Counted from the stretch's first letter, positions 2,267 through 38,039 are shown. The stretch is 56,162 bases of DNA from Gammaproteobacteria bacterium (GCA_039936115.1 JBDTIZ010000066.1:1-56162); one strand, 5' to 3'. The notes: generated from the sequence alone by a model not told the origin. A program made the numbers and translations.

Positions 2267-2542
2267 TCGAAGAATAGGTTAAGTTGGTCGAATATTATCA
2301 TGATTTCAAAAGAATTGCCTACTTTTATCGTGTTTTAAGGGACGATAATCCGCAGAGACATCCACATTCAGCGAGGCTTTTATTATGTGTAGGTGCCAGC
2401 GCTGGATTAATATTTCCTTTAGATGAAGACTAAAATCTGTATAATTACAGTCCGCCAGAAGTTGAATTTTTTGCACAACAAGAAAACCGCTGTGTAAATT
2501 GCTCTCAGTCTAGCTATTATTTTTCTTACAGAGGATTTGTTG

Positions 2543-3838
2543 ATGCCAAAAATACAAATGTGGAAAAGATCGTCACGGTTTCGGTTCGATGGGGTGATGC
2601 AATATTCACCTACCAAAAGGAGTGTTTATCAATATGGTGTCGATCCTTATAGTTGCGAGCTTAGCTCTACAGATATTTGTTATGCGGTACCTGAATCAAA
2701 AGAATTGGCAGTATCCAAACACGAACACGATCCAATTGAACTTTTTTATCTAGATGCCCAATATAGCGATAGCTTTTTTATTCTTCGAGATATCACAACG
2801 GGTAACTGTTTCGTTTATAAAAACGCTGAGGATATGGCAGCTTTAGCGCAGAGCAAAGCAGATCACGGGATTACTGAAAAATCAATCGTTCAAATGTGCG
2901 TGGTTATGCATGAGTCTTCAGATGAACTGAAAGATGTTGAGCTTAAGTTATCGGCGCCCTGCGAGTTAGCATCCATGTCAGTTCTAGTAACTCATGTATT
3001 GGATAATGATATAAAGCGATTTTATGGAATCGAGTTTTATCCTGAGACAGAAAAAGTAGCTATTAATTATATACAGTATCGTGCTGAATTCTCTAATGTG
3101 TTTGAAAAAGATCGGATTATTTCTAAATTCACAATGGCAATTAAAGATCAAAGCGTATTTACAAAATCCTTAGAAGCTGCAATTAAAACGAATCAATTTA
3201 TTGAAAAAGAAACTTTTTCCGTCTTAAGAGATTATCCATCTACAACCACGCTTAGAGAATTAATTTTTTCTCCATCCGCGGCAGTTACTAAGGTTTGGAA
3301 AGAAAACACAAATTTAATACAACAAAATCTTAAATTATTAGTATGTTTACTGAGAAAATCACATTTCCCTCAAATTGATTGCTATTATGCAGACGCATTT
3401 TTAAATGTGCAGAGCAAATTAGGCTTGTTGTATTTGGCAGATAATAATATCCAAAAAGCAGCAGAACATTTTGCATGTGCTGGCACATACTATCATCAGC
3501 AACGGTCTTGTCAGACAGACTGGGGTCAAAGAACTTTCTGTAGTTTAGCTGGAGCAGCTTATGAAAAATTGGGTGACTATCGACAAGCATCCATTTTTTA
3601 TGGAAGGGCATTAAGTGTCTATGCTAATGAGGGAGATAAATTAAACTGTGAAAGAATTGCTACGTTACTCAAAAACGAAGAAGTAGCAAAAAAATCAGCA
3701 GAGGTGAGAGACCAGCCTAAGTCTCGACCTTTGTTGCAGGGAATTATTGCTACTCCAAAGCAAACCTCAGCAACTAGTCTTGAGTCCGTGCAGGTTAAAA
3801 CTGAAGAAGAAAATAGAGGATTGGTACACAGCTTCTAG
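2543..3838 (+). CDS. hypothetical protein with a TPR-like C-terminal region
   Basis: Long ORF. ATG at 2543 lies 7 nt after GAGGA. Helical repeat-like segments are present (AAEHFACAGTYY..., AGAAYEKLGDYRQASIFYGRALSVY). The C-terminal tail is KTEEENRGLVHSF. Confidence 0.6.
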   Translation: MPKIQMWKRSSRFRFDGVMQYSPTKRSVYQYGVDPYSCELSSTDICYAVPESKELAVSKHEHDPIELFYLDAQYSDSFFILRDITTGNCFVYKNAEDMAALAQSKADHGITEKSIVQMCVVMHESSDELKDVELKLSAPCELASMSVLVTHVLDNDIKRFYGIEFYPETEKVAINYIQYRAEFSNVFEKDRIISKFTMAIKDQSVFTKSLEAAIKTNQFIEKETFSVLRDYPSTTTLRELIFSPSAAVTKVWKENTNLIQQNLKLLVCLLRKSHFPQIDCYYADAFLNVQSKLGLLYLADNNIQKAAEHFACAGTYYHQQRSCQTDWGQRTFCSLAGAAYEKLGDYRQASIFYGRALSVYANEGDKLNCERIATLLKNEEVAKKSAEVRDQPKSRPLLQGIIATPKQTSATSLESVQVKTEEENRGLVHSF

Positions 3839-3843: not shown

Positions 3844-3941
3844 CTGTAGGGGCGAATCTATGTGTTCGCCCTGCGGCCTCATAATGCAAATGTTATTTCT
3901 TCGATTGAGAGGGCGAACACATAGGTTCGCCCCTACAAAAG
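3844..3941. repeat. pair of REP-like elements in inverted orientation (composite hairpin / MITE-like)
   Basis: The reverse complement of 3846-3873 (TGTAGGGGCGAATCTATGTGTTCGCCCT) nearly matches 3910-3937 (AGGGCGAACACATAGGTTCGCCCCTACA). The pair sits between convergent genes. Confidence 0.7.
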
Positions 3942-9310: not shown

Positions 9311-9383
<73 letters not shown>

Positions 9384-10378: not shown

Positions 10379-10579
10379 TTAAATTCTATTGACCCGATGT
10401 TCAAGCAGCCAGCTATCTAAGTCTTCCCTGAGATACCGTATGCTCCGACCCAATTTTAAAAATTTAGGCCCTTGTGTTCTATTTTCACGGATTCCATTCA
10501 TGCGATCCTGACGTAAAAAGCTTCTGCTCATGTTGATGTATTCTGAGGCTTCTTTTTCTGTGAGAGTTATTTTATGCAT
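10379..10579 (-). CDS. alpA: AlpA-family prophage/island regulatory protein (small HTH, excisionase-like)
   Basis: 66 aa. EASEYINMSRSFLRQDR...GPKFLKLGRSIRYLREDLDSWL is the typical AlpA/Phage_AlpA pattern, and the gene sits close to a tRNA. Confidence 0.75.
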   Translation of the reverse strand: MHKITLTEKEASEYINMSRSFLRQDRMNGIRENRTQGPKFLKLGRSIRYLREDLDSWLLEHRVNRI

Positions 10580-10985
10580 TGTGTTTCTCTAAATAAATTA
10601 TTGTCATCCTCTATCTGCCATAATGTACAGCAATATCCAGTGAGAATTAATTCTCATCATTTGTATAGTGATTGTCAATAAATAAATAGTGGTATTAGAT
10701 GATAAAAAAGCAAGGTGCAAAATGTGCATATTGCTAATTTAACCAAGCTGTCTATGCTTATGGGCGAATACAAAAAATCAACGCTGGCTTAATATTCAGG
10801 CAGAGAGCAAGAAAAAAGATGAGGAGTGTAATAAGAGAGAAGCTGGTTAAGTTCTAAGCTAGTAAAGGAGTTTTCTACACTTAGATTGATTGTACTATTT
10901 GTCTTCATAATCAATCATAATACATAATCTCAGTGTATTAGAGAGAGACGTGCTCCTAGAGATATAGAATCAAAAAAATACAGTT

Positions 10986-11006
10986 GCATTCTATCTATTA
11001 GAATGC
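10986..11006. promoter_or_regulatory. perfect 8-bp inverted repeat upstream of hxsA (possible operator or 5' leader hairpin)
   Basis: GCATTCTA-TCTAT-TAGAATGC lies about 36 bp upstream of the hxsA ATG. Confidence 0.25.
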
Positions 11007-11041
11007 GATCTTATTAGGTATTAATCCAGGATGGATATACT

Positions 11042-11326
11042 ATGACTGACACAAATGGGAAGAAAAGGAAGTTTCTTAAACCGATTGAATTTGCAGTTGC
11101 AGCACTCCTATCGATAGCATTACCTGCGACAGCAGCAACAGTACCAAGTGGGGTTGATGGCCAAGCTAGTAACCCAATTGTAAATCCAGCTCCTCAGGTA
11201 AAACATTCCAAGCAGAAACAGCTTCTAGTTAAACCATCAGATCAAAAGAATAAAGAGCAGCTTGCAGGTCATTACTCTCATTCATCTCATAGCTCGCACT
11301 CTTCACACTACTCAAGTAGTCGGTAA
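11042..11326 (+). CDS. hxsA: His-Xaa-Ser repeat protein HxsA (putative precursor/substrate peptide)
   Basis: The C-terminus is GHYSHSSHSSHSSHSSHYSSSR, six consecutive H-x-S triplets. The N-terminus has a signal-peptide-like segment, FAVAALLSIALPATAAT. The gene is followed directly by the hxsD/B/C-type genes. Confidence 0.85.
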   Translation: MTDTNGKKRKFLKPIEFAVAALLSIALPATAATVPSGVDGQASNPIVNPAPQVKHSKQKQLLVKPSDQKNKEQLAGHYSHSSHSSHSSHYSSSR

Positions 11327-11331
11327 TTGAT

Positions 11332-11676
11332 ATGCCGGTATGTGAAGTTCAGTACATTGAATCTAACAGCGCTGAATCTGTAGATATTTTGATCGATCTT
11401 GGTTTGTATAGCGTTACAGCAGTAAAAAAATCTTGCTATAAGTTCACTGCTGATTGTTCTATCCAGATTAATTCAATTAATCAGAATAAATTGCGATTAA
11501 TTTTAACCTTCCCAATCAGCACTAGTATTGAGGTCAGGAATAAGTTAATTGCTGATTTCCATAATGAACTTTTAGATCAAGACTTAAGAGAGATTATATC
11601 TAAAGAAGCTGAGTCTGTTAGAAATTTAATATTGGCAGAGTCATTTTCAAAAACTTCTATACTAGAATCTGAATAA
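11332..11676 (+). CDS. hxsD: His-Xaa-Ser system protein HxsD
   Basis: Small 114-aa protein 5 nt after hxsA and 1 nt before the first radical SAM gene. Its position and size match the HxsD family (TIGR03976, from memory). Confidence 0.65.
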   Translation: MPVCEVQYIESNSAESVDILIDLGLYSVTAVKKSCYKFTADCSIQINSINQNKLRLILTFPISTSIEVRNKLIADFHNELLDQDLREIISKEAESVRNLILAESFSKTSILESE

Positions 11677-11677
11677 T

Positions 11678-13144
11678 ATGATTGTTGAGAGATCGAAATT
11701 TAAATCATTGAGCAGTTATTATAGTGATGAGGGTGGTTACAAGTTACTTCCCTTTAAATTTATTTCGTTAGATGCCGATAGATATGTGCTGACCAATATG
11801 GTTGGTGAGTATGTAGTTCTATCACGAGATCATATCTTTCGTTTTGTGCATAAAAAATTGTCTCAGCACTCAGATATATATAATTCTTTAAAAGCAAAGC
11901 ATTTTCTATACGATGAAAAATCGGATGTGGCAATTAATTTGCTTGCATTAAAATACCGTACAAAGAAAAGTCGATTATCCAATTTCACTAGTTTGCATAT
12001 TTTTGTTGTTAGTCTCCGATGTGATCATTCATGCCCCTATTGCCAGGTGTCACGACAAAATTTAAAAAGTTCACTTTATAATATGAGTCAAGAAACAGCC
12101 GATAAAGGGTTGGATTTTGCATTTAAAAGCCCCTCATTGAGCATAAAAATAGAATTTCAAGGGGGGGAACCTTTATTAAATTTCGATTTAATTAAATATA
12201 TTGTTCTTGTTGCAGAAGAGCGAAATAGGCTGGCGAAAAAAGAAATTCAATTTGTTATAGCGACTAATCTTGCATTTATTGACGAGGAAATTCTTCTATT
12301 CTGCTATGAGCATAAGATTCAGATATCGACTTCACTTGATGGTCCAGAAGAGTTGCATAATAAAAACAGACCACGACCAGGAAAAAATAGTTACGAACTA
12401 ACAATTAATGGAATTAATAAAGTAAAGCAGGCACTTGGATATGATAACGTGTCTGCATTGATGACAACTACAAAAAATAGTTTGGGGAGAGTAAATGAAA
12501 TCATTGATGAATATATTAAGCAGGGATTTAATTCTATATTCTTACGGCCATTAAGCCCTTATGGTTTTGCTATAAAAACCAAAACGTTCAGTAAATACGA
12601 TACGCAGGCATGGTTAGATTTTTATTTTAAAGGTCTTGAGTATATTCTTGAAATAAATAAGCAGGGATATTATTTTTCTGAACAGTATGCAGCTATCATA
12701 TTAAGTAAGATGTTTAGTCCCGAAGAACCTGGTTATGTCGATTTGCAATCACCAGCGGGTATAGGAATGGCTGCTATCGTATTTAATTATGATGGTGATG
12801 TGTATGCTTCTGATGAAGCTAGAATGCTTGCTGAAATGCATGACAAAACTTTTAAGCTAGGTAATCTACATAAGGATTCATACGAAAATATTATAGGTTC
12901 TGATGTATTGTTAGATACGTTAGAACAAACTATGACAGAGAGTATGCCAGGATGTTCGGATTGCGGATTTCAAGCATTTTGCGGTAGTGACCCTGTGTTT
13001 CATCATGCTACTCAAGGAGATAGGGTGGGGCACAAACCTACGAGTGCTTTCTGTCACAAGAATATGGAGATATTCCGCTATCTTATTCGTTTAATGGAAG
13101 ATAATGCGAATGCAAAATCTATATTGATGAGTTGGGTGAGGTAA
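11678..13144 (+). CDS. hxsB: His-Xaa-Ser system radical SAM/SPASM maturase HxsB
   Basis: CDHSCPYC CxxxCxxC radical SAM motif, GGEPLL SAM-binding motif, and a C-terminal Cys-rich SPASM-like region (CSDCGFQAFCGSDP...AFCHKN). Confidence 0.8.
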   Translation: MIVERSKFKSLSSYYSDEGGYKLLPFKFISLDADRYVLTNMVGEYVVLSRDHIFRFVHKKLSQHSDIYNSLKAKHFLYDEKSDVAINLLALKYRTKKSRLSNFTSLHIFVVSLRCDHSCPYCQVSRQNLKSSLYNMSQETADKGLDFAFKSPSLSIKIEFQGGEPLLNFDLIKYIVLVAEERNRLAKKEIQFVIATNLAFIDEEILLFCYEHKIQISTSLDGPEELHNKNRPRPGKNSYELTINGINKVKQALGYDNVSALMTTTKNSLGRVNEIIDEYIKQGFNSIFLRPLSPYGFAIKTKTFSKYDTQAWLDFYFKGLEYILEINKQGYYFSEQYAAIILSKMFSPEEPGYVDLQSPAGIGMAAIVFNYDGDVYASDEARMLAEMHDKTFKLGNLHKDSYENIIGSDVLLDTLEQTMTESMPGCSDCGFQAFCGSDPVFHHATQGDRVGHKPTSAFCHKNMEIFRYLIRLMEDNANAKSILMSWVR

Positions 13145-13148
13145 TAAC

Positions 13149-14333
13149 ATGCTTAAGTTGTATTCAAAGATCAATCCCATCACGCCTATAGTGATCACAT
13201 CCAAACTCATTGCTAAACTAACAGATAACAAAACTATTCCAATGCCACTTCGTTCAAACTTGATATTTTTAAGCAAAGAAAATCATCCTTCTATTTTGCC
13301 TGAAGGTTTTATTGGGTATTTAACGCATACTTCAGAAGTATTGAATCTACATTTATTGAAGAATGTGTATCATTTACCTAGCGATTTATATTATCTTTCT
13401 TCTGAAGATATTGTATCGATTAATCCTGGTCTTCAAACACTTCGCACACTTTATAGAAGAAATTCGCATCATAACTCATTGCTTGTCACGGAAAATTGTA
13501 ATAATTATTGTTTAATGTGTTCTCAGCCACCGAGAAATATCAATGATAGATATATAGTCAATGAGATTCTAACTATGATTCCCTTAATGAGTAGGGATAC
13601 AAGGGAAGTGGGTATCACTGGCGGGGAGCCTACACTTCTTGGTGATGACCTTATTGCGATATTTAAAAGTTTTAAAAATAACCTACCAAACACAGCATTG
13701 CATGTGCTAACGAACGGTAGAAATTTCGTGGATACTGAGTTTGTTGCTAAAATTGCTTCTATTGAACACCATGATTTGATGTTTGGCATACCGGTTTATT
13801 CTGATGTGTCTAATATTCATGATTATGTAGTGCAAGCTGACAATGCATACAATGAAACTATTAAAGGTATTATTAATTTAAAGTCATTTGGTTTAAGAGT
13901 TGAAATTCGCGTTGTTCTTCATAAACAGACCTATCAGCGACTTCCTAAATTAGCTGAGTTTATTGCTCGCAATTTATTATTTGTTGATCATGTAGCTTTA
14001 ATGGGATTAGAAATGACTGGCTTCACCAAAGCAAATATAAATGATCTCTGGATTGATCCTGTCGATTATCAACTACAGCTTGAAGAGGCTATTGATATTT
14101 TGGCGCGCGCAGGAATAAATGTATCAGTATATAATCATCAGTTATGCTTAATACCCGAAAGCATTTGGCGATACACGAAAAAAAGTATTTCTGATTGGAA
14201 AAATGGATACATGCCAGAATGTGAAGGATGTGAAGTGCGTGCCGAGTGTGGTGGTTTTTTTAGTTCAGCACATTTTAAGTATAGTAGTAATATTAAGCCC
14301 GTAAAAGAACATAATAAGGCAGTCACGTTGTAA
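13149..14333 (+). CDS. hxsC: His-Xaa-Ser system radical SAM maturase HxsC
   Basis: CNNYCLMC CxxxCxxC motif, ITGGEPTL, and a C-terminal Cys cluster PECEGCEVRAECGGFF. It is paired with HxsB. Confidence 0.8.
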   Translation: MLKLYSKINPITPIVITSKLIAKLTDNKTIPMPLRSNLIFLSKENHPSILPEGFIGYLTHTSEVLNLHLLKNVYHLPSDLYYLSSEDIVSINPGLQTLRTLYRRNSHHNSLLVTENCNNYCLMCSQPPRNINDRYIVNEILTMIPLMSRDTREVGITGGEPTLLGDDLIAIFKSFKNNLPNTALHVLTNGRNFVDTEFVAKIASIEHHDLMFGIPVYSDVSNIHDYVVQADNAYNETIKGIINLKSFGLRVEIRVVLHKQTYQRLPKLAEFIARNLLFVDHVALMGLEMTGFTKANINDLWIDPVDYQLQLEEAIDILARAGINVSVYNHQLCLIPESIWRYTKKSISDWKNGYMPECEGCEVRAECGGFFSSAHFKYSSNIKPVKEHNKAVTL

Positions 14334-14383: not shown

Positions 14384-16519
14384 TCAAAAAGGCGGCTCTT
14401 TGCCTACAATATCTTTAATCCAGTACATCTCAGGAAAATCTGCTCGCGAATACCCCGTAGATAAGTAAATAGTTCTAAATCCCTTCTCATATAATTCTTT
14501 GGCATAATCCTGTCCTTTCATAACATCATTTAAATCTGAGTCAATAAAAATAGGTGTATCAACATCATATTTATTTAAATCAATTTTAAGAGCGCGGATC
14601 GAATTATATGAAGCAATTGCTTTACCTTTAGAGAGGCCATGCAATTTCCAGGCATCCGTGATGTCTGAGTTATCATCAACAAATATTAAATCAACAGGCT
14701 TAATAGGGTTGTGTTTAGACACAAATATTGGAATGTATACCGCAAAGGTCTTTGGGATAATTTTTAATCCAATCTTCTCACAGCGTTCTCGAACACTTAA
14801 GTCTTCATGACGGCTTGTGACTAAGTAAGACCGATCAGTAATATTCAATTCTTCAATAATACTTAATCCACTCTTGTTAGAACCAATCAGTTCGTAGTCA
14901 ATCAAGAAAATATTTTCACCAAACGATTTATTTTCTCTATACCAAGTTAATAAATCTTGAGGATTATAGTGATTCACAAAATTCAAATAACCATGCTCTT
15001 CTTTGAAGCGCTTTTTCCACACCTGATGAATAGATTCATCATCGTCTAAAATTACGATAGACTCTTTAGGATCAATAATTAATTCAGAAAGAAACCATTT
15101 TGGCGTGCAGGTTTGCGGTAAAGTAATATCAATTGTTGTACCGCTATTAACGGAAGAACGTATCTGGAAGTGTCCGTTCCATTCTTTTTTGATAGTCTTT
15201 ATTGCATTCAGCAAGCCTAGCCCATGACCTTTTACTTTGCTGGAAACGCATTCGCCATTAGTAATTTTCCCAAGTGTATCTGATGATATGCCGCATCCAT
15301 TATCTTGTATTTGAATAGTTAAAACATTTTTCCTATCTAATTTTGATGTACTCAGACGGATTTTAATTTCACTCGATAATGCTTCAATTGAGTTATCAAT
15401 TAAATTGGACAATACCCTATTAAATGCAGAGGCTGATATCATCGAAAATTTACCATAGGCATTTTCTTCTAAGCATATTATTAATTTTGTAGTATCATTT
15501 CTATACTGCACCCGTTTTTCAGATATCAGGCTCATAAGCAGATCAGACAAAAGTTCAGGCTTAATATTTTCAAAGTCATCAGAGGCAGTGTTTTTTTTGC
15601 GTTTATACTGGGTCAATAGATTGTTCGCAATGTCTGTTATACGGTTTGCTGAATTGCGAATCACTATTCGTTGTTCCTCAGGAATGTTTTTAATGTCTTT
15701 AATGATGATATCTAATGCTGTCAAGGGGGAGCGGATATCGTGTGCCACAGCAGCAGCAAGATCAAGTAACGCATTCATTTTTTCAGCTTCTATGCGTTTA
15801 CCATATTCATCTTGTAGATTTAAAAGCAGCCCTTCAAAAGCATCTTTAATTTCAATTAATTCTCTAGGCGCATTCACAATATCAGGTGTTATTGAAGTAT
15901 TTAATATGTGATCTTTCAGCGTCACTAACGGTTTCAATAACCGACGATATAGCATTCTTCTAAATAATATTATCAAAAACAAAAATAAACCAATTAGTAA
16001 TCCAACAAAATAAAATATAATAGGAGAAAATGAAAACCATTTGTAAGTAGTGAAGCTTAATAATGTGCCTGCGTTTTTCTCACCCGCAATTTCATTGGTG
16101 TTTTTTAAAATTGAACAATTAACTAAATATTTTTTACCATCAATATACTTATAAACAATTTCTAGATTTTTACAGTCACTAGTTGATTTATAGGAAGCTG
16201 AAACAAATTTCGAAAAGTGACTCTTTTCATAATCTGACATGATAATAGTGCCGTCATTATCAACTACTACAAATGTTTCTTCCTCTCCGGATGCCATAAA
16301 TAACAGCCGCTTAACTTCAGATAAATCAGAAATTATTAGTGAAGGTGCGATTAACTGAGACAGCATTCTATGAATTCTTTGCAGATTATTCTTTTGTTTT
16401 TCCTGTTCATCATATTTATTAAAATAAAGCCCAGCCGACAGGGTTGCTATTAAGATAGCAAGCCCAGCGATAATAAAAAATCGCTCAATTAGAAAGTGAA
16501 TTTTTGGTTTGCTAGTCAT
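14384..16519 (-). CDS. hybrid sensor histidine kinase (TM sensor, HisKA, HATPase_c and two receiver-like domains)
   Basis: Two TM segments bracket a ~140-aa periplasmic region. The H-box is AAAVAHDIRSPLTAL. The N/G boxes are DNSIEAL, QDNGCGI and GHGLGL. The C-terminal REC-like modules are IVILDDDES...FLIDYEL and LIFVDDNSD...IFIDSDL. Confidence 0.85.
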   Translation of the reverse strand: MTSKPKIHFLIERFFIIAGLAILIATLSAGLYFNKYDEQEKQKNNLQRIHRMLSQLIAPSLIISDLSEVKRLLFMASGEEETFVVVDNDGTIIMSDYEKSHFSKFVSASYKSTSDCKNLEIVYKYIDGKKYLVNCSILKNTNEIAGEKNAGTLLSFTTYKWFSFSPIIFYFVGLLIGLFLFLIILFRRMLYRRLLKPLVTLKDHILNTSITPDIVNAPRELIEIKDAFEGLLLNLQDEYGKRIEAEKMNALLDLAAAVAHDIRSPLTALDIIIKDIKNIPEEQRIVIRNSANRITDIANNLLTQYKRKKNTASDDFENIKPELLSDLLMSLISEKRVQYRNDTTKLIICLEENAYGKFSMISASAFNRVLSNLIDNSIEALSSEIKIRLSTSKLDRKNVLTIQIQDNGCGISSDTLGKITNGECVSSKVKGHGLGLLNAIKTIKKEWNGHFQIRSSVNSGTTIDITLPQTCTPKWFLSELIIDPKESIVILDDDESIHQVWKKRFKEEHGYLNFVNHYNPQDLLTWYRENKSFGENIFLIDYELIGSNKSGLSIIEELNITDRSYLVTSRHEDLSVRERCEKIGLKIIPKTFAVYIPIFVSKHNPIKPVDLIFVDDNSDITDAWKLHGLSKGKAIASYNSIRALKIDLNKYDVDTPIFIDSDLNDVMKGQDYAKELYEKGFRTIYLSTGYSRADFPEMYWIKDIVGKEPPF

Positions 16520-16527
16520 TTTTCATT

Positions 16528-18012
16528 TCACATAGGTTGTCTTGTTATATTGCCGAGATAGTATTGATGAATCGAAATTAATCCTATTCCTGGCGTTCTA
16601 AGAGTTTTTCTCACATAAATTCTTTTTTGAGGGGAAGTAAAAAGAGGTCGAATTATACAGAAATCACCTATCTCTTTTACAATTTTCTGATATTCAGTGG
16701 CTCTGCCTTCAGCGCTCAATATGTCTTGGCTATGTAAAATTTGATTTGAAATAGTCTTATTGTAAATCCCAGAGAAATTACCCTCGTTTTTTTGAAAAAC
16801 GGTTAGATACTCATATCCATCAAGATAATTTGATTTCCACGCAAATAATATAGCATCGCAATTATCATTCAAAAAATCTTTGCCGAACTTTTTGACATCG
16901 CTGATGGGTTTCATAATAACGGTAGGATAGTGTTTTTTAAACATCTTTAAATATTCATTCTTATATTTTTCTTGAATCGATACCGTCAAATAAGACAAGC
17001 AAAAAGGCTGCGGTTTTGCATCTAATTTCCCATTGATCGACTTTCTCGACAGCATAGTCATTTGATCATTAAAATTTTCATTTATATTGTAGCCTAGAAC
17101 GCCTTTAGGCAATAAATCATTGGCTTCTTTCATAGTGTTTCCATAGCTGGCTAATAATCCGTTTATGTCAAGTTCAGATAAAAATTTACAACGCTCGTAT
17201 TTGCTTTTCCATTTCTTACTATTTGAATTCAGGCCGACATAAAATTGGATGGGATCAAACATTTCTAATTCATTAAAATTATCTAATTCTTTTGATGTAC
17301 CAATAACATTTATGCCAACAATATCGTATTTTTCTAGCTCACTAGCATCTATTTGACTAGTTTTGCTTAAAAAGAAGGTTATCGGTAAACCCTGAGAAAC
17401 AGGAGTTAATTTAATATAATTATTATTAAAATCAGCAACTTTATACCCGCCGCATCCAAGTGGGTTTTTCCAGAGGCTCTTATCAGTTTTAGCTTTATCG
17501 AGAAAGTCTTTATTAAATATAGTGTAATTTGTAGAAGATAAAACCTTTAAAAATTGTGGAATAGGTCTTTTAAGCGCAAATGAAATTGTTTTATTATCAA
17601 TAATGTCGATTTTGTCAATCCAAGTAAAAAGGTTATTAAGAATGGTTCTTGATTTTTTAATATAGTTAAAACTTGCGAGTACATCATCTGACGTCACTGG
17701 TGAACCATCATGAAATCTCGCTTTATTGCTTATTTTTAAAATGATTTTTAACGGTGTGATATATCTGATCGATTCCGCAGCATCTAAAACAAATACTGAT
17801 CCTTGGCTGCGAACTAGCTGACAGTTAACTTGCCGCGAAACGATCCAGCTTTGAGAATCTTGTACCCCAGCCGGATCAAGAGAAATCACAGAAGGTTGTA
17901 GAGTCATTCTTAGAGGTTCATTATCTGAATTTGCATTTGTTAAAGTTGGAGTAATAAACAATAAAAATCCAAATAGTATTAAAATATGTTTCATCAAATT
18001 CATTTTTACCAA
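16528..18012 (-). CDS. periplasmic solute-binding protein, family 5 (oligopeptide/dipeptide-binding type), orphan
   Basis: Signal peptide MKHILILFGFLLFITPTLTNA. The length (~494 aa) and N-terminal pattern (LDPAGVQDSQS..., RFHDGSPVTSDDV) fit SBP_bac_5. There are no adjacent ABC permease or ATPase genes. Confidence 0.7.
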   Translation of the reverse strand: MVKMNLMKHILILFGFLLFITPTLTNANSDNEPLRMTLQPSVISLDPAGVQDSQSWIVSRQVNCQLVRSQGSVFVLDAAESIRYITPLKIILKISNKARFHDGSPVTSDDVLASFNYIKKSRTILNNLFTWIDKIDIIDNKTISFALKRPIPQFLKVLSSTNYTIFNKDFLDKAKTDKSLWKNPLGCGGYKVADFNNNYIKLTPVSQGLPITFFLSKTSQIDASELEKYDIVGINVIGTSKELDNFNELEMFDPIQFYVGLNSNSKKWKSKYERCKFLSELDINGLLASYGNTMKEANDLLPKGVLGYNINENFNDQMTMLSRKSINGKLDAKPQPFCLSYLTVSIQEKYKNEYLKMFKKHYPTVIMKPISDVKKFGKDFLNDNCDAILFAWKSNYLDGYEYLTVFQKNEGNFSGIYNKTISNQILHSQDILSAEGRATEYQKIVKEIGDFCIIRPLFTSPQKRIYVRKTLRTPGIGLISIHQYYLGNITRQPM

Positions 18013-20270
18013 TCTATTAATTGAGGGAATTCTATCGGCATCGGTGTAAAGGTGTAATTTTTTGGTGGTGTTTCATCTAGAAGATGTTGCACGAAGTAAT
18101 CCCAGTGACGGCGGTTATAATAAGGATGATCGAAAGTCGAGCTGTGATTTTGATTAGGCATAATCAGCATATCAAAATCTTTATTATGTTTTATCAATGC
18201 ATCCACAAATTGCATTGTGGCACAAGGATGTACGTTGTCATCCATTTCACCATGAATCAGAAGTAATTTTCCTTCTAAATTCGCTGCATGAGCCGCATTG
18301 CTTTGTGTTTCATAAGTCGTGGTATCCATGCTGTTGTATTTCTCACCGTAGCTCGCTGGATAACAGCGTAAATCGTGATTTCCTGCGGCTGCTACACCTA
18401 CTTTGAAAAATTCTGGATACATCAGCATGGCACGAGCTGCTGCAAAAGCACCGCCTGAATATCCCGTGATGCCTACTTTATTCAATTCTATGAAGCTATA
18501 TAGTTCTGCCAGCTGCTTAATAGCTGTAACATGATCTGGAATACCGCAATCACTCATGTTCTTATAGGTCATATCATGAAATGCTTTTGAACGGCCTGGG
18601 GTGCCAAAGCCATCAATATGCAGCACGATAAATCCAAGTTCTGCGATGGCTTGAGCTGTCCATTGGGATCTAAATATAGATCCGTACAAAGTAAAATGCT
18701 CAGAGGTTCTATAAACTTGCGGTCCCGGGTAAATATGATCAATAAGCGGATATTTTTTATCGGGATCAAAGTGAGAAGGAAAATATAAATTTCCATAAAT
18801 AGGCGTTATGCCATCTCTTGCTTTTAAACAGATACGTTTAGGCGGGACCCACTTGAGTTTTGCTAATCCAGAGATATCTGCTGTTTCAAGATGCGAAATT
18901 AATTTCCCATCCATAGTTTTTAAATGACTAACAGGAGCTGTGTCGATAGTGGAGTAGGTATCTAAAAAGCAATGCTTGTCTGGAGAGATATAAATGGAAT
19001 GACTAGCATTTTCTTCTGTCAGGCATTGTATCTCTGACCCATCCAAATGGCAGCGAAATAGTTGCTTATAATAAGGATCAATATCTTTGTTGTAACCAGT
19101 GGCGGTAAAATATAGCCAGTTTGTCTTAGCATCATAAAAATGCACTTCTCTTACGTTCCATTCGCCTTGCGTAATAGCTTTTTTAGCAACATTGCTACCC
19201 ATATCATAGAGGTATAAGTGGGCATTACCACTGCGCTCAGAAAGCCAAATTATTTCTTTGCTATCTTCTAAAGCAATAACTTGATGAGGCCATAAAAAAT
19301 GTTGGCTAGGTTCAATATAGGTATCGGCAGTTTCAGTGATAAGTGTTTCTGTTACGCCTGAATGAGCATCAGCTACACACAGCATCAATTGTTTTGATGA
19401 TCGAGTATCGCGTAAAAAATAAATTTTTTGATTATCGTCACTCCACCAAACCCATTTAAATTCAAGAGGAGTTAAATAAGGTGACAACATTGAATCTGAT
19501 TTTATGGGAGTAATTTTCTGTGTCAAAGTGTCAATTATTAATAATTCTGCCATGGGTAAATTCGCATCGCCTGAAAACGACATACGGTAGTTGTGCAATT
19601 CAGGTCGTTGGCTTCCTTCGGGAGAGTTTTGTAGAAGAAAGAGGAAATCAACATTTCGCTGATCTAACTTGTGTGTAACTATCTTATGGGAATCAGCTGA
19701 CCATAGTGCTACTGGCGGGGTAATAGTGTTTTCAAATTTAAGTCGAATCGTGCGTGTATTCGTTTCGGGTGAAGTAGCATAATCAAGATACCTTTCACCG
19801 TCTTTCGTCAGTTGAAAATCTTGATGACTTACCAAATCATTTAAAACCAGGTTATGTTCTTTAATCGACAAAGCCCAATTTTTATCGGGCGATTTTAAAT
19901 ATTCAGGAGAATTATCTTCTTGTATGCAGGTATTTTTTTCAAAATCATAATACCAATTATTTTTTTGATAAGAAAAATGTAATCGCCTTGGGCTTTCATC
20001 CATTGAAAATATATCCAGAGGTAATTGGATTGGATCAATCTCTTGTTTGAGCTGAGTAGAAAGTAAGTTCAATAATTGTTGATACTCAAATATTTTTTCT
20101 GTGTTACCAGACTTAATATCAATTCTTAGCAATGATTTCCCTGTGGCAGTTTCTTGAAAATAATAAAGTGCTTCAGCAGTCCAATAGGGAAATATTGTGC
20201 TATTAAATACACTATGTTGTAGGTTCCAAGGGAGAAAGCATTCTGCACGCTGGTAAACATGGCTATCCAT
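18006..20270 (-). CDS. S9-family serine peptidase, dipeptidyl-peptidase IV-like (beta-propeller plus alpha/beta hydrolase)
   Basis: GITGYSGGAF nucleophile elbow (GxSxGG), HGEMDDNVH (Asp) and NQNHS (His) form the catalytic triad region. The long N-terminal DPPIV_N-like propeller has no obvious signal peptide. Confidence 0.8.
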   Translation of the reverse strand: MDSHVYQRAECFLPWNLQHSVFNSTIFPYWTAEALYYFQETATGKSLLRIDIKSGNTEKIFEYQQLLNLLSTQLKQEIDPIQLPLDIFSMDESPRRLHFSYQKNNWYYDFEKNTCIQEDNSPEYLKSPDKNWALSIKEHNLVLNDLVSHQDFQLTKDGERYLDYATSPETNTRTIRLKFENTITPPVALWSADSHKIVTHKLDQRNVDFLFLLQNSPEGSQRPELHNYRMSFSGDANLPMAELLIIDTLTQKITPIKSDSMLSPYLTPLEFKWVWWSDDNQKIYFLRDTRSSKQLMLCVADAHSGVTETLITETADTYIEPSQHFLWPHQVIALEDSKEIIWLSERSGNAHLYLYDMGSNVAKKAITQGEWNVREVHFYDAKTNWLYFTATGYNKDIDPYYKQLFRCHLDGSEIQCLTEENASHSIYISPDKHCFLDTYSTIDTAPVSHLKTMDGKLISHLETADISGLAKLKWVPPKRICLKARDGITPIYGNLYFPSHFDPDKKYPLIDHIYPGPQVYRTSEHFTLYGSIFRSQWTAQAIAELGFIVLHIDGFGTPGRSKAFHDMTYKNMSDCGIPDHVTAIKQLAELYSFIELNKVGITGYSGGAFAAARAMLMYPEFFKVGVAAAGNHDLRCYPASYGEKYNSMDTTTYETQSNAAHAANLEGKLLLIHGEMDDNVHPCATMQFVDALIKHNKDFDMLIMPNQNHSSTFDHPYYNRRHWDYFVQHLLDETPPKNYTFTPMPIEFPQLIDW

Positions 20271-20478
20271 TTTATTTTCCTGATTCTCTTGTATTTGTGG
20301 GTTAGATTTAAAGATAAATATTAAGGTATATCAACAATAACTGAAAAACTTCTACAGGAAGCGCTGCACGAAGCTAGCTCCCTTTAAAATAAATAAACGT
20401 CAAATTTTACACAATTATTTAGTGATAGTAAAATTGTAAAAAATATCAATAGATGCAGCTAATTACGGGGCTTTTCAT

Positions 20479-20512
20479 AGGCAGATATAGCATTTGAATG
20501 CTATATCTGCCT
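20479..20512. terminator. strong palindromic hairpin between the response-regulator gene and the peptidase gene (possible terminator/attenuator)
   Basis: AGGCAGATATAGCATT-TG-AATGCTATATCTGCCT has perfect 16-nt arms. It lies immediately downstream of the 20527 stop on the minus strand and has no clear U-tract. Confidence 0.4.
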
Positions 20513-20526
20513 GATAATTTCTTAAT

Positions 20527-21450
20527 TTATACCACTTCGGAGTTAACTGCCGCCCAAACTAATTTCTCGTCATTCATTACCGAATTCGCAGGGTGTAAGA
20601 ATCCATCCCACTCGCTCGCAGCTATTTGCCAATATTTTTGATGGCCAAAGAATGGTATAACATTACCTTCTTGCAGCCGATTTATTGTCTCATTTGAGCC
20701 TTCATCATCTAATGCTAATTTAGATAACTCTTGCAGGTGTGCTCTATCTCTCACAAGCAAGTACTTCTGCTCCGAATTTTTATTTTTTAATAAAAAATTC
20801 CCATCAGTGTCAGTTAGACAAAATGACACAATATTATTGTCTCGAATATACTGTTTAAATTCTCTAATGAAATGATTGTTACTAAGATAGCTGAAATCAG
20901 GCATGTTTGTTACTAGACCGCTTAACGAAGAAAAATATTTCCATTCCAATTCTAAAGCAGTTTGTTGAAATTTATTCATGAAGTCAGGATCGTCTTTTCT
21001 AATGTAGCTGTCTACTAAGCCGCTATTAAGTGCATCTACACCAATTTTATAATCTCTCTCGCCAGTGATTAATGCCTTTTTCATGGGTAAATGTTGAATT
21101 TCTTTTAAAAAATCTAATCCATACATTTCTGGCATGTGATAATCAACAAATAGAACGCTAACATCATGTTGAGCTGAGTTCGTTATTGTCTGTTGAAGTG
21201 CATCAATCTGAATGTTGATAGTACGCTGCGTAGTTGGGATTGCTGCGGTTATATCTAAAGTGGCTACGTGATCCTTGGTTAGCATTACTTTATATTCGTC
21301 TAGCAAATAGCGCATTGCCTGCTTAGGTGAATTATACCCTGAAAAATTTTTTCCATGCATTTTTAATAGAATACTTTCTGTAAAGCTTTGGTCGTCATCT
21401 AAAATTATTTTCCGCATTGGGAATAAGCAGATAGGAATTGCTGTGGTCAT
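20527..21450 (-). CDS. response regulator with an N-terminal receiver domain and an uncharacterised ~150-aa output domain
   Basis: KIILDDDQS...VLFVDYHMPEMYGLDFLKEI...KALITGE is the receiver pattern. The C-terminal half carries no recognisable DNA-binding motif. Confidence 0.75.
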   Translation of the reverse strand: MTTAIPICLFPMRKIILDDDQSFTESILLKMHGKNFSGYNSPKQAMRYLLDEYKVMLTKDHVATLDITAAIPTTQRTINIQIDALQQTITNSAQHDVSVLFVDYHMPEMYGLDFLKEIQHLPMKKALITGERDYKIGVDALNSGLVDSYIRKDDPDFMNKFQQTALELEWKYFSSLSGLVTNMPDFSYLSNNHFIREFKQYIRDNNIVSFCLTDTDGNFLLKNKNSEQKYLLVRDRAHLQELSKLALDDEGSNETINRLQEGNVIPFFGHQKYWQIAASEWDGFLHPANSVMNDEKLVWAAVNSEVV

Positions 21451-21920
21451 TATTCATCCTGAGGCTTTTTCATCGCCGATAATAGTTCTTGCATTTGGAT
21501 TGTTGTTTTGAGGAGGTTTTTAGCATTCAGCGGCAGCAAAGGTAAGATTTCTGCTGTGAGTTCTTCACCAATTAAATTAGCCGAGAGTGCTTTTTGATAG
21601 CCATCGACTAGCGTAGGTAAAAGATCAGCTAAAATGCTCGCAATAGTTTTGATAGTGGTGAGTTTGCTATTAAGACTATGCAGAAGAGCGCTATCAATAA
21701 CCGCCTGATTATTTAACGGGGTTATGCCAAGCAACTGATCCAGACTTACGCCAAAATACTCCGCTATTGGTTTTATAGTTAAAACCTGCGGATTTTCGGT
21801 TACGCCAGTCATCAAACGATAAACGACCGGTTGGCCAACCCCTGTTTTTCTTCCAAGTTCTGCGCATTTGATGCCCTTCACTGACATAAGGTAGGAGAGC
21901 ACGCTTGATAAATTATTCAT
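21450..21920 (-). CDS. XRE-family helix-turn-helix protein
   Basis: LSYLMSVKGIKCAELGRKTGVGQPVVYRLMTG...IAEYFGVSLDQLLG is the HTH_3 pattern. Its stop overlaps the response-regulator start. Confidence 0.75.
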   Translation of the reverse strand: MNNLSSVLSYLMSVKGIKCAELGRKTGVGQPVVYRLMTGVTENPQVLTIKPIAEYFGVSLDQLLGITPLNNQAVIDSALLHSLNSKLTTIKTIASILADLLPTLVDGYQKALSANLIGEELTAEILPLLPLNAKNLLKTTIQMQELLSAMKKPQDE

Positions 21921-22739: not shown

Positions 22740-24422
22740 ATGCAAATTATAAAAAAATTTGAAACACCAGGCCCAGGCGTTTGGGAATTGGATAACTCTC
22801 ATTTTTCAAGACCAATGAGTTTGTTTAGCAAAGAAATGTTTACCACTAGTTTAGTGCAAGGACTTAAAGAAGGAACTAATCGTTATGGGTTAGCGCTTAG
22901 TCATTTAGCATATGCAATGGTTAATGGTTTTTTCTATAAAAAACCTGTTTTATGCGGAATATCTGATGATCATTATGGTCCACTTCCTAGAGACTTATTC
23001 GAGAGAAATTATATTTTAAATAGATTAGAGGTTGGTAAAAAAGCATTAGAAACCAAACTTTGGCGTGAAGATTTAAAAAAATGGGACAATGAAGTAAAAC
23101 CAGATTCGATAAATAGAAATAAGTGCTTGCAAGCAATATTACCTCATTCATTAAGTGACACAGCTTTAATTCAACATCTAAAAACATGTTACGAAAATGC
23201 GCTAGAAATGATGTATCGACATCATGTATTTACAATTCCTGCCGTATTGCCGATAGGATTATTCGTGAGCAAAGTCCGTGAATGGACTGGTTTGCCTTCT
23301 TCTGAATTGCTCTATTTACTTAAAGGCTCGACTCCAATTTCTAAGGGTGCAGCTGATAATGAATTAGATAGTATTGTTACATGTTTTAAACGCGAAAGGA
23401 TTTGCCCGGAAAACTATGTTGGGGAATCAGCGTTAGACGTATTAAATGATATCAAATCGAAATGTGATCCGATCACAAAGCAAGCGCTAAATAGCTATCT
23501 AGATTTCGTCAATTACAGATTAATCACTGGATATGACGTTACAGATAAATTTGGCCTAGATATGCCAGACTTAATTGTCAGCAATATATGGAATCGTTAT
23601 TTGCAAACTAATAATACAAATAGCGATGTCTCATTGCATGAAAAAACAGAGTATGTCCGATCGAAAGTACCAGCTATTCATCAGAATGAATTTGATTCAC
23701 TTTTAATTGAAGCAAGAATGATTAATCGATTAAGAGATGAGAGAGGAATATATAACGATGTATTAGGAACAGGTCTAGCAAGACGTGCAATTTTAGAAGC
23801 AGGGAAAAGGCTAGAAGAACAAAATTGTCTGCCTGATCGCAATCTTCTTTTACATGCATCTTATGAAGAAATTATTGTGCTTCTAAATGATAAGACATCC
23901 GCATTAAACAATGAGCTTGTTGATCGAGCAACATGGTTTGAAAATCACACAGTTGATGATGCGCCACTAATTTTAGGCGGCGAATCAGTATCAAAGCCGC
24001 CCATATCAGCATTTCCGGAAATTGCTAGACCTGGAATGATCGCTTTATTTACTGCAATCGGAGAGATTTACGATAGTTCAGAAAATAATGCTAAGAAAAA
24101 TGAATTAATTTCAGGCACTCCAGTTAGCTCAGGTGTTTATGAAGGAACAGCAAGAGTTATTTGTACTACAAAAGATTTCAATAATCTAATGCAAGGTGAT
24201 GTCCTAGTAACAAAAAATACTACGGCTGCATTCAATGCAATTTTATCTTTGCTCGGTGCAATTATAACTGATAGAGGTGGCCAATTGTCACATGCTGCAA
24301 TTGTGTCAAGAGAGTATGGCATTCCAGCAGTAGTTAGCACAGGAAATGCAACGCAAATAATAAAGGACGGGGCTAGGGTTAGAGTAGATGGAATCAAAGG
24401 AACTGTAGAGGTTTTATCATGA
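22740..24422 (+). CDS. PEP-utilising-enzyme mobile (phosphohistidine swivel) domain protein with a large N-terminal substrate-domain-like region
   Basis: The C-terminus GTPVSSGVYEGTARVI...VLVTKNTTAAFNAILSLLGAIITDRGGQLSHAAIVSREYGIPAVV is the PEP_utilizers motif with the catalytic His. The preceding ~450 aa are alpha-helical, like the substrate-binding domain of rifampin phosphotransferase-type enzymes. Confidence 0.8.
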   Translation: MQIIKKFETPGPGVWELDNSHFSRPMSLFSKEMFTTSLVQGLKEGTNRYGLALSHLAYAMVNGFFYKKPVLCGISDDHYGPLPRDLFERNYILNRLEVGKKALETKLWREDLKKWDNEVKPDSINRNKCLQAILPHSLSDTALIQHLKTCYENALEMMYRHHVFTIPAVLPIGLFVSKVREWTGLPSSELLYLLKGSTPISKGAADNELDSIVTCFKRERICPENYVGESALDVLNDIKSKCDPITKQALNSYLDFVNYRLITGYDVTDKFGLDMPDLIVSNIWNRYLQTNNTNSDVSLHEKTEYVRSKVPAIHQNEFDSLLIEARMINRLRDERGIYNDVLGTGLARRAILEAGKRLEEQNCLPDRNLLLHASYEEIIVLLNDKTSALNNELVDRATWFENHTVDDAPLILGGESVSKPPISAFPEIARPGMIALFTAIGEIYDSSENNAKKNELISGTPVSSGVYEGTARVICTTKDFNNLMQGDVLVTKNTTAAFNAILSLLGAIITDRGGQLSHAAIVSREYGIPAVVSTGNATQIIKDGARVRVDGIKGTVEVLS

Positions 24423-25225
24423 GATTAGTTAAATTGAAAGATGCTATAGAAGAATCGGAGTTTGGTGGTAAAGCAGCGAATTTAGCTAAGGGTATAAAGG
24501 CTGAATTACCTGTTCCTGACGGTTTTGCACTGAATACTGTATTCGTGAATAAGATTTTAGAAAAAAACACTTTAGCAACAAATAATCTTAAAAGCGCATT
24601 TGAAGATTTAAATTCAATGGTGGCAGTCCGTTCATCTGCGACTGGGGAAGATTCTAAAAATGCAAGCTTCGCTGGACAATATCTCACTATGTTAAATATC
24701 AATTCCTTCGAGCAGTTAATTGAGGCTATTGAAAGCGTAGCAAACTCAGCGTTAGAAATTTCTGTATTAGATTATAGAGAAAAACTCGGTTTAGCTCAAA
24801 AACCACAAATGGCAATTGTAGTGCAGAAACTAATCGATGTAAAAACAGCAGGTGTTTTATTCACTCGTAATCCTATCACCCAAGCCAAAGAATTTTTGGT
24901 TGAAGCTTCATGGGGCATAGGAGAAGCAGTTGTAGCGGGATTGGTTATCCCAGATTTCTTTAAATTAAATATTGATGGAGAACTTGTAGAAAGCAAAATT
25001 GGTATTAAAGACAAGGCGCTAAATTTGAATTTAAACGGTGGGTTAGATGAAGTATCCATTGATAAAGTTCAGGCTGTCAGATCTTCATTGACTAATAATG
25101 ATTTAAAAAATCTGTATCAATTAGCTAATGCCTGCAAAAGTGTATATGGAGATGACCTGGACATCGAGTGGGGAATTACGAATGGCAAAGTACATCTCTT
25201 GCAGTGTCGCTCCATAACAACTTAA
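24419..25225 (+). CDS. PEP/pyruvate-binding (PPDK_N, ATP-grasp) domain protein
   Basis: FGGKAANLA...VAVRSSATGEDSKNASFAGQY...VVQKLI...AGVLFTRNP...GEAVVAG...LDIEW is the classic PPDK_N/PEP synthase nucleotide-binding pattern. It has an ATGA overlap with the upstream gene. Confidence 0.85.
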   Translation: MRLVKLKDAIEESEFGGKAANLAKGIKAELPVPDGFALNTVFVNKILEKNTLATNNLKSAFEDLNSMVAVRSSATGEDSKNASFAGQYLTMLNINSFEQLIEAIESVANSALEISVLDYREKLGLAQKPQMAIVVQKLIDVKTAGVLFTRNPITQAKEFLVEASWGIGEAVVAGLVIPDFFKLNIDGELVESKIGIKDKALNLNLNGGLDEVSIDKVQAVRSSLTNNDLKNLYQLANACKSVYGDDLDIEWGITNGKVHLLQCRSITT

Positions 25226-25262
25226 AAATATTTTTTGATTTTGTCTGGATTAGGATAAGAAA

Positions 25263-26525: not shown

Positions 26526-26556
26526 TTGTTCTGAATATTATATATAGGAGTAATAA

Positions 26557-28979: not shown

Positions 28980-28994
28980 GTAGGAATAAACACT

Positions 28995-29780: not shown

Positions 29781-29790
29781 AGGAGCTAAT

Positions 29791-31211: not shown

Positions 31212-31256
31212 TTGTCTAATTTTAATAATTAAAAATATAATTTGATGGAGCTAATA

Positions 31257-34481: not shown

Positions 34482-34491
34482 GAGTATCGCA

Positions 34492-34794: not shown

Positions 34795-34799
34795 TCAGC

Positions 34800-37900: not shown

Positions 37901-37907
37901 GGCAAAT

Positions 37908-38039
37908 ATGAAAATAAAATTATTTATTATGGCAGTCATTATAAGTGTGATGACGGGTTGTGCAAGTCAGGGAATGAAATCTCCTTGCAATGAACATGCT
38001 AACTTTTGCGGCAATAAAACTAAAATCAATTTGTGGTAA
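37908..38039 (+). CDS. virB7: small lipoprotein, VirB7-like (not in the supplied ORF track)
   Basis: Manual translation gives MKIKLFIMAVIISVMTGCASQGMKSPCNEHANFCGNKTKINLW (43 aa). It has a lipobox VMTG/C and fills the 147-bp gap between virB5 and virB6. Confidence 0.6.
   Translation: MKIKLFIMAVIISVMTGCASQGMKSPCNEHANFCGNKTKINLW

Follow-up and report, generated by a model that had tools for sequence, protein, structure and literature searches.

An intact His-Xaa-Ser (HXS) cassette of the short-precursor branch in a variable region of an uncultured Legionellales genome

Background

His-Xaa-Ser (HXS) systems comprise a protein with repeated H-x-S triplets (HxsA), two radical S-adenosylmethionine (SAM) enzymes (HxsB and HxsC) and an accessory protein (HxsD). 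The hxsD-B-C-A genes of Escherichia coli have been described as an anti-phage system which restricted 110 of 113 coliphages and required all four genes for defence (Li et al., Nat Commun 2026; PMC13128918). Restriction took place without abortive infection and without loss of adsorption; entry of phage DNA was delayed, and T7 escapers carried mutations in the ejectosome proteins gp15 and gp16 (PMC13128918). Here we describe a locus of this kind in a window of 56,162 nt, the entire contig JBDTIZ010000066.1 (GCA_039936115.1) from rhizosphere metagenomes, whose host is an uncultured Legionellales bacterium of soil or rhizosphere.

The E. coli HxsA is a periplasmic protein with a signal peptide (residues 1-22), exported and matured by the radical SAM enzymes; its modification of +8.0 Da (+C, -4H) was mapped to SHRSS, the last repeat (PMC13128918). 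HxsC binds HxsD, and the modification chemistry was not reconstituted in that study. Defence required segment 23-47 of HxsA and was abolished by a mutation of its peptidoglycan (PG)-binding domain as well as by mutations of Y23, D61 and R65 of HxsD. In the published model the basic repeats bind DNA and trap it electrostatically, and in the accompanying census 99.6% of the systems had the order D-B-C-A and 99.7% belonged to Pseudomonadota (all PMC13128918). The original prediction for our window, made from its sequence, proposed a complete HXS system carried as island cargo and held the chemistry and role of such systems to be uncharacterised, a view now outdated by the 2026 report of anti-phage activity and of the +8 Da modification on the last repeat (PMC13128918).

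Results and discussion

Organization and family assignment of the cassette

The cassette consists of four intact, co-directional open reading frames (ORFs) in the order hxsA-hxsD-hxsB-hxsC, separated by 5, 1 and 4 nt. Its elements are as follows.

10978-11041, + strand: 5′ stretch conserved with the cassette, probably the promoter-proximal region with the ribosome binding site
11042-11326, + strand: hxsA, 94 amino acids (aa), short HxsA2-like His-Xaa-Ser precursor/effector
11042-11134, + strand: signal-peptide-like N-terminus of HxsA (KKRKFLKP, AVAALLSIALP, ATA/A), residues 1-31, cleavage site inferred
11222-11236, + strand: hydrophobic motif LLVKP, HxsA residues 61-65, with P65 12 residues before the first His
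11270-11314, + strand: (HxS)5 array HYS HSS HSS HSS HYS, HxsA residues 77-91, followed by SSR up to the stop codon
11332-11676, + strand: hxsD, 114 aa accessory protein, TIGR03976
11678-13144, + strand: hxsB, 488 aa radical SAM maturase with CDHSCPYC and a partial SPASM tail, TIGR03978
13149-14333, + strand: hxsC, 394 aa, second radical SAM maturase with CNNYCLMC, TIGR03977

That the locus is a complete HXS system, as had been predicted, seems to us practically certain. All four genes are present, and three of the products exceeded the trusted cutoffs of their NCBIfam profiles: HxsD with 61.2 bits against TIGR03976 (cutoff 50), HxsB with 647.1 bits against TIGR03978 (cutoff 370; residues 23-487 matched positions 1-466 of 466) and HxsC with 409.6 bits against TIGR03977 (cutoff 267.9). 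Thus the comparison with TIGR03976-TIGR03979, on which the original assignment was to stand or fall, came out in its favour for HxsD, HxsB and HxsC, and the gene positions, the gaps of 1-5 nt and the two radical SAM motifs were also as it had described. Pfam recognized Radical_SAM in HxsB and HxsC and a sub-threshold SPASM domain in HxsB, and the same scan found no Pfam domain in HxsA or HxsD.

HxsA itself stayed below all three NCBIfam HxsA cutoffs. The best match was HxsA2 (NF038296), aligned from end to end (residues 7-93 with positions 2-96 of 96) with 38.5 bits, E = 1.7e-9 and a cutoff of 48, followed by HxsA (TIGR03979; 33.2 bits, cutoff 121.65), to which only residues 46-93 were aligned (profile positions 26-76 of 190), and by HxsA3 (15.7 bits, cutoff 65). 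The layout of the HxsA2 subtype, a protein of about 80-110 aa that ends just past the HxS array and is encoded upstream of hxsD-hxsB-hxsC, is found here in full. The locus is therefore a further example of an already catalogued and common short-precursor subtype, its four genes making up an intact, self-contained cassette of this HxsA2-like branch.

The nearest HxsB proteins, 84%, 72%, 72% and 71% identical, come from Coxiellaceae and Legionella. The best plasmid match was p057_G of Nostoc sp. C057 (L005), where the same gene order is annotated by PGAP as hxsA2-hxsD-hxsB-hxsC and the products are 66% (HxsB), 58% (HxsC), 49% (HxsD) and 34% (HxsA, E = 2e-8) identical to those of the window. The Nostoc HxsA2 has 96 aa, ends in SHYSSSR, and shares with the window protein the FLKP...AALLS start and the LVIAPS/KEQL motifs; however, it has six repeats, two of them with Arg, whereas the window protein has five without Arg, and the gap between hxsA and hxsD is 530 nt in Nostoc and 5 nt in the window.

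Upstream of hxsA an AGGA lies 12 nt 5′ of the ATG. The counts of promoter and terminator predictions stayed within the expectation from shuffled sequence.

The HxsA precursor and its repeat array

The C-terminus of HxsA reads LAG-HYS-HSS-HSS-HSS-HYS-SSR, that is five in-register H-x-S triplets and three residues beyond them, and not six triplets as first counted. The subfamily of this HxsA is small at the sequence level: a search of 5.8 billion proteins brought eight other members, in all eight of which the array and the terminal SHYSSS are invariant, and across many phyla 40 of 40 short HxsA proteins have the His and Ser of triplets 1-4 unchanged. The array is thus no product of chance. Its ten tail serines are coded by TCT, TCA, AGC, TCG and AGT, a mixture which argues that the HxS repeat has been kept at the level of protein and not as a slippage repeat of DNA. 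The X residues of the window array are Y, S, S, S and Y, with neither Arg nor Lys. The predicted mature protein of about 60 residues is Lys/His-rich and, owing to six Lys that precede the array, still basic (isoelectric point, pI, about 9.8, net charge about +4).

The N-terminus of HxsA, in agreement with the original prediction, resembles a signal peptide: five K/R fall within positions 7-13, the core AVAALLSIAL is hydrophobic (mean Kyte-Doolittle value 2.65), and A-T-A occupies positions 29-31. This call was made with a home-made heuristic whose cleavage-site picks fell too early, inside the hydrophobic core, so that the presence of n- and h-regions alone was retained. F11, L12 and P14 are invariant across the nine-member subfamily, small residues at -3/-1 recur in the homologues, and the N-terminal plan K/R-x-FLxP-Φ-x-x-A-x-AAL is common to short HxsA proteins across phyla. 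Such a start had been considered unusual; it is the norm of the family, recognized by the heuristic in 53 of 54 short HxsA proteins and present as the signal peptide 1-22 in the E. coli protein.

Between the two ends stands LLVKP, a candidate maturase-recognition or processing element judging from its conservation: L61 and L62 are invariant in the subfamily, and FVLKR, LVIAP and FLMKP take its place among the 40 short HxsA proteins.

Comparison with the E. coli and Klebsiella systems

The copy on Klebsiella plasmid NZ_CP031801.1 (L006), which matches the residue numbers of Li et al., served as the alignment reference. The two systems consist of the same four protein families. HxsB and HxsC of both carry the CX3CX2C and CX2CX5C...C sets of cysteines, and HxsD of both the Tyr and the D...R motif of LLNDYxLRE type. 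In this alignment C98, C101, C399 and C402 of HxsB correspond to C119, C122, C426 and C429 of the window protein, C105, C108, C342 and C345 of HxsC to C121, C124, C358 and C361, and Y23 (the Tyr of LYW), D61 and R65 of HxsD to Y36, D82 and R86, so that every residue mutated in the E. coli work has an aligned counterpart in the window.

The HxsA proteins of the window and of Klebsiella have in common a signal-like start, five HxS repeats and a final SH[R/Y]SS, through which S88-H89-Y90-S91-S92 of the window aligns with the SHRSS modification site of E. coli. In both a ΦΦΦxP motif lies 12 residues before the first His; in Klebsiella it is LVIAP at 42-46 and falls inside the 23-47 segment needed for defence in E. 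coli. The window HxsA corresponds to the N-terminal module of the long HxsA proteins. In the latter (202-264 aa in Klebsiella, Agrobacterium and Microvirga) the array is followed by SSSGGG, a low-complexity linker and PG_binding_1, whereas the window protein, with 94 aa against 211 aa in Klebsiella, has neither the Ser-rich linker nor the PG-binding domain. The systems differ moreover in gene order (A-D-B-C in the window, not D-B-C-A) and in the repeats, which in the window are devoid of Arg. HxsB and HxsC of the window are 34% and 39% identical to the Klebsiella proteins; by BLASTP HxsD was not detected and HxsA gave no alignment. An hhalign comparison of the pre-array parts of short and long HxsA proteins aligned only the signal-like N-terminus (probability 88%) and was discarded as unusable as a test of homology.

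HxsB, HxsC and HxsD

The conserved cysteines of HxsB are C115, C119 and C122 in the radical SAM motif and C426, C429, C435 and C459 in the C-terminal part; those of HxsC are C117, C121 and C124 and C333, C358, C361 and C367. Both enzymes thus carry CX3CX2C and an auxiliary set at the positions of the cysteines mutated in E. coli, and with just four conserved C-terminal Cys each would have ligands for one auxiliary cluster. The tails had been called SPASM-like and Cys-rich, which is right in kind; the SPASM domain of HxsB is a partial one, scoring 20.7 against a Pfam gathering score of 21.5, and the conserved C-terminal cysteines number four per enzyme.

The nearest solved structure to HxsB is CteB (5WGG, E = 3e-19), ahead of anSME (PDB 4K36-4K39, E = 8e-10), and its second-best NCBIfam matches are the PapB, CcpM and SCIFF maturases. 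With CteB and anSME it shares the radical SAM core and the C-terminal Fe-S region. The Hxs system differs from CteB, anSME and PapB in the four conserved C-terminal Cys of HxsB for one auxiliary cluster, in the paired second radical SAM enzyme HxsC, for which a sequence search found no related solved structure, and in a substrate that bears an export signal instead of a classical cytoplasmic leader.

Y36, D82 and R86 of HxsD are invariant or nearly so in 62 homologues, R86 being invariant. An AlphaFold2 (AF2) model of HxsD (pLDDT 83.7) has a β-β-α-β-β arrangement and a 47-residue helix. The idea that HxsD might be a PqqD-like recognition element (RRE) of the kind serving ribosomally synthesised and post-translationally modified peptides (RiPPs) was rejected, as the arrangement of the predicted fold is not PqqD/RRE-like, and in this respect too the system departs from the CteB/anSME/PapB maturases. 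A search with the model gave no confident PDB relative at E ≤ 1e-3, and a sequence-profile search of PDB gave nothing meaningful; type III secretion chaperones, the top small-protein matches, were dismissed as too weak (TM 0.38-0.45).

The short-precursor branch

A scan by HxsB alignment of 185,579 species-representative genomes gave at least 579 relatives, of which the best 80 (49-84% identical) were analysed and fell into the following arrangements.

45 of 80 loci: short HxsA upstream of hxsD, ending 2-5 residues past the array
20 of 80 loci: upstream HxsA with another C-terminal extension
5 of 80 loci: HxsA downstream of hxsC
1 of 80 loci: upstream and downstream HxsA, each C-terminally extended
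9 of 80 loci: no HxsA found, mostly at contig ends

More than half of these best 80 loci lie outside Pseudomonadota, among others in Acidobacteriota, Actinomycetota, Myxococcota, Planctomycetota, Nitrospirota and Cyanobacteria. With a profile of the window HxsA subfamily, a search of 1.84 billion representatives gave 1,060 matching clusters (50% identity), and 142 of the best 150 clusters are of at most 129 aa and matched end to end; altogether the branch of short HxsA without an anchor exceeds 1,000 such clusters in at least 12 phyla. We infer that the published figures of 99.6% and 99.7% look like an effect of seeding with long HxsA and of the heavy sampling of Klebsiella and E. coli.

A single plan underlies the 40 aligned short HxsA proteins: K/R-x-F-L-x-P-Φ-x-x-A-x-A-A-L, a variable spacer, Φ-x-Φ-Φ-x-[K/R/P], 6-9 residues, the array and a tail of 2-3 residues. 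Judged by an E-value proxy, 19 of the 40 reach the HxsA2 cutoff, so that a score below it is usual for the fast-evolving short HxsA.

Several loci depart from the common arrangement. In six of the 45 short-type loci (L021, L026, L027, L055, L062 and L070) two tandem short HxsA proteins with different X residues are encoded 5′ of hxsD. On five IMG/VR viral contigs (L091-L095) a short array-terminal HxsA of 84-104 aa is encoded after hxsC, which shows that a short HxsA need not be encoded upstream. The HxsA frame of Coxiellaceae bacterium SSA3 (L010, 3511-3654) has 47 codons, begins at a Leu codon and is without a signal-like N-terminus; it may represent a precursor gene shortened by truncation or a frameshift, with the adjoining hxsD, hxsB and hxsC intact. 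In a Binatia locus (L027, 6623-7045) a separate small PG-binding-like ORF follows hxsC, and in Polynucleobacter (L046, 6614-7066) and Microvirga (L008, 7254-8942) proteins with CPRSxGPSLWxSC repeats are encoded after the cassette. Anchoring or accessory functions may thus be encoded in trans in some Hxs systems.

Neighbours of the 45 short-type loci were surveyed as far as the second ORF on either side. Known defence genes and candidates for such a role recur there, namely a PDC-S41/SLFN-like helicase (3 loci), OLD/GajA/AriA-like, AbiU, AIPR, PDC-S71, PDC-S64, PD-T4-5 and HEC-08 genes, and integrases and transposases recur as well; with no matched background control, this recurrence is only suggestive of a defence role. 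No general fifth gene or partner was found in the flanks of the 45 loci. In 7 of them a small class-I SAM methyltransferase-like gene (175-225 aa, homologous among the loci) stands by hxsC, directly after it and on the + strand in L017, L020, L023, L055 and L059 and on the - strand in L073 and L081; it may encode an accessory tailoring enzyme, which the window does not have.

Proposed mechanism and its alternatives

We propose that HxsA is made as a 94-aa pre-protein with an N-terminal Sec-type signal, LLVKP as the recognition motif and the C-terminal (HxS)5 array. In the cytoplasm HxsB and HxsC, the latter with HxsD as its partner, would covalently modify the array, most likely at the last repeat SHYSS, and the three proteins would also license processing of the HxsA N-terminus. 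A mature protein of about 60 residues would then be exported to the periplasm and act there, as in E. coli, as a non-abortive barrier at the level of the envelope against incoming phage or other foreign DNA. Maturation and export along these lines appear very probable from the conserved features of the four proteins, and the export which the original prediction had derived from the N-terminus agrees with the experiments on the E. coli homologue (PMC13128918). For an anti-phage or anti-DNA-entry role we have a slight preference, by analogy: all functional steps at the window locus, defence above all, are taken over from a homologue whose HxsB is 34% identical.

A number of observations weigh against this proposal, in particular against its last step. 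The PG anchor, essential in E. coli, is missing from the window HxsA together with the linker, and the array does not have the basic repeats on which the published model is built. This is no peculiarity of the window: in 31 of 54 short HxsA proteins none of the X residues is basic, and many of the predicted mature peptides are acidic, for which reason the model of basic repeats binding DNA cannot be general. To the same side belong the distance of HxsB and HxsC from their Klebsiella counterparts, the scores of HxsA below every family cutoff and the finding that no RNA run contained the locus sequence, which was present in DNA metagenomes only. No recognisable defence gene stands beside the cassette, where Pfam identified a GDSL lipase, a helix-turn-helix (HTH) protein, a hybrid kinase, a peptide-binding protein and a DPP-IV peptidase. 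Phages of Legionellales are, to our knowledge, scarcely known.

Some of these points could be read as signs of an inactive relic, in which the genes are intact by chance, are not expressed, or encode an HxsA that is no longer a substrate: HxsA misses all NCBIfam cutoffs, the sequence is absent from the RNA runs and promoter prediction does not rise above chance. Such decay is very improbable in view of four full-length ORFs with all catalytic and experimentally essential residues, the preserved spacing of 1-5 nt and a 77%-identical relative with all four frames open; the low HxsA score loses its weight when, of 40 undoubted members of the short type, just 19 attain the HxsA2 cutoff. Another explanation keeps the enzymology and changes the job, the short unanchored HxsA being a His/Ser-rich peptide that is free in the periplasm or secreted and serves a purpose other than defence, for which metal binding, suggested in the original prediction, or a metallophore, signalling, and exclusion of conjugative DNA on behalf of the neighbouring type IV secretion system (T4SS) element are candidates. 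The missing anchor would fit such a peptide, and so would an array whose sole universal feature is fixed-phase His/Ser with small X while charge is unconserved (pI 5.3 to 12), a C-terminal module for which PG_binding_1, unknown domains or nothing at all are used interchangeably in the family, a methyltransferase in 7 of the 45 short-type loci that recalls the tailoring enzymes of natural products, and the cargo-like metabolic genes and T4SS in the region of the cassette. Yet no conserved transporter, receptor or metal-uptake gene accompanies the short-type cassettes, the only experimental Hxs data point to defence, and defence and mobile-element genes recur in the flanks, so that a non-defence function appears rather doubtful to us and the envelope barrier remains the reading we prefer.

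Genomic context and mobility of the cassette

The features that define the surroundings of the cassette are listed below.

9311-9383, + strand: tRNA-Thr(CGU), border between core genes and the variable region, 1.66 kb 5′ of hxsA
10379-10579, - strand: small AlpA-like HTH_17 regulator (PF12728, 28.7 bits), typical of islands
34164-45445, + strand: VirB2-B11/VirD4-type T4SS genes (CagE_TrbE_VirB, T4SS, TrbL, TrbI, TrwB/TraG-D and a weak MobC)
46046-47251: IS256-family transposase, sole mobile-element enzyme among the scanned ORFs

To the left of tRNA-Thr lie the core genes zapD, pilD/C/B and a pilin gene. After it follow, in this order, a GDSL lipase, the AlpA-like HTH, the hxs cassette, a convergent sensor-kinase/peptide-binding/DPP-IV block, a metabolic cluster, the VirB/VirD4 T4SS and the IS256-family transposase. 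The T4SS set includes VirB4, VirB5-like, VirB6, VirB10 and VirD4-type proteins and forms a module like that of an integrative and conjugative element (ICE) 20 kb from the cassette.

The hxs genes are a mobile cassette in this variable, tRNA-Thr-adjacent region of the chromosome. DNA similarity to the closest relative, a Coxiellaceae metagenome-assembled genome (L001), extends over 10978-14285 (77% identity) between unrelated flanks; for the four closest relatives it is limited to 10978/11017-14318, beginning no more than 65 nt 5′ of hxsA and ending at the hxsC stop, and the flanks of the relatives' cassettes differ, with smpB in one and IS66 in another. Homology that ends at the edges of the cassette indicates that the cassette is mobile. 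Sixteen Hxs loci were found on predicted viral contigs of IMG/VR.

The original description of the cassette as island cargo is partly supported. The tRNA-Thr, the AlpA-like HTH, the T4SS at 20 kb and the unrelated contexts in relatives speak for it; against it, no integrase or attachment (att) repeat in the window marks the limits of an island or ICE, and read depth is flat. No match to Phage_integrase, rve or Recombinase occurred among the scanned ORFs of the window, and the window held no second copy of the tRNA-Thr 3′ end (with up to 3 mismatches) and no relevant long direct repeat, though the far end may lie beyond the contig. Read depth in four metagenome runs was level on the two sides of the tRNA (19 and 20 in run X1); loose read ends at the tRNA, considered as a signal of an empty site or excision, result from tRNA sequence that other organisms have in common with the window.

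It is quite possible, though we lean slightly the other way, that the cassette was inserted on its own, as a small element, into a variable region that is old and decayed, and is cargo neither of the T4SS element nor of a tRNA island. Beyond the lack of an integrase and of a tRNA-Thr 3′-end att repeat within 56 kb, and the equal depth on both sides of the tRNA, this would accommodate the G+C content of the cassette (0.34-0.35), barely under that of the core flank (0.36-0.41), and the 20 kb to the T4SS, filled with genes that are not conserved beside hxs elsewhere. It leaves aside the adjacency of the tRNA and the presence of the AlpA-like regulator, the T4SS genes and the IS256-family transposase in one block after it, and the contig may stop short of the far junction.

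Other features of the window

Convergent on hxsC, the - strand of 14384-21920 encodes a hybrid histidine kinase/receiver, an SBP_bac_5 peptide-binding protein, a DPP-IV/S9 peptidase, a response regulator and an XRE HTH protein. The block has the look of a module for sensing peptides; as it does not accompany hxs in relatives, it is probably unrelated to the cassette. The cargo-like cluster that follows on the + strand (22740-31775) encodes a split PEP-utilising/PPDK-type enzyme, an MFS transporter, an AfsA-like hotdog protein (A-factor/butyrolactone synthase family), an Old Yellow Enzyme, two SDRs, a flavodoxin-like reductase and a DUF2867 protein, and may represent a pathway for a small molecule, possibly a signalling lactone.

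Within the weak MobC-like ORF 42975-43748, between virB11 and virD4, a 38-nt inverted repeat (43025-43115) with 97% complementarity and a 15-nt loop may be a hairpin like those of transfer origins (oriT). Computed from its length, a second contig of this locus (33.7 kb, from a different assembly) ends near 43054. On the - strand of 47906-51621 a protein with two cyclic-nucleotide (cNMP)-binding domains, a BFD-like 2Fe-2S domain and an FNR-like reductase adjoins a protein of the animal-haem-peroxidase family, a pairing unusual for a bacterium. A 46-nt repeat, 96% identical in its two copies, occurs at the start of the contig (2-47) and after ORF 2537-3838 (3896-3941); it has an internal G+C-rich hairpin, can form a hairpin with 3845-3872 and looks like an element of the repetitive extragenic palindromic (REP) type.

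Conclusions

On its own the locus adds little, being one more HXS cassette from an uncultured soil Legionellales bacterium. Its value lies in a clean, minimal and self-contained example (3.3 kb) of the short-precursor type, a branch which the sole functional study did not address. The cassette retains all the residues essential in E. coli without the PG anchor and the Arg-rich repeats that underlie the current model, which makes it suited to testing the need for anchoring and charge in HXS defence, and its mature HxsA of about 60 residues would be a small soluble substrate for the +8 Da radical SAM chemistry. Short anchor-less HxsA proteins form a broad and largely unstudied branch. It is conceivable, though we think it unlikely, that their matured products are free exported peptides that depend neither on a PG tether nor on positive charge and have another mechanism or another job, for instance in handling metals or in keeping out conjugative DNA. 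If this were true, the published picture of HXS would describe only one over-sampled branch of the family.

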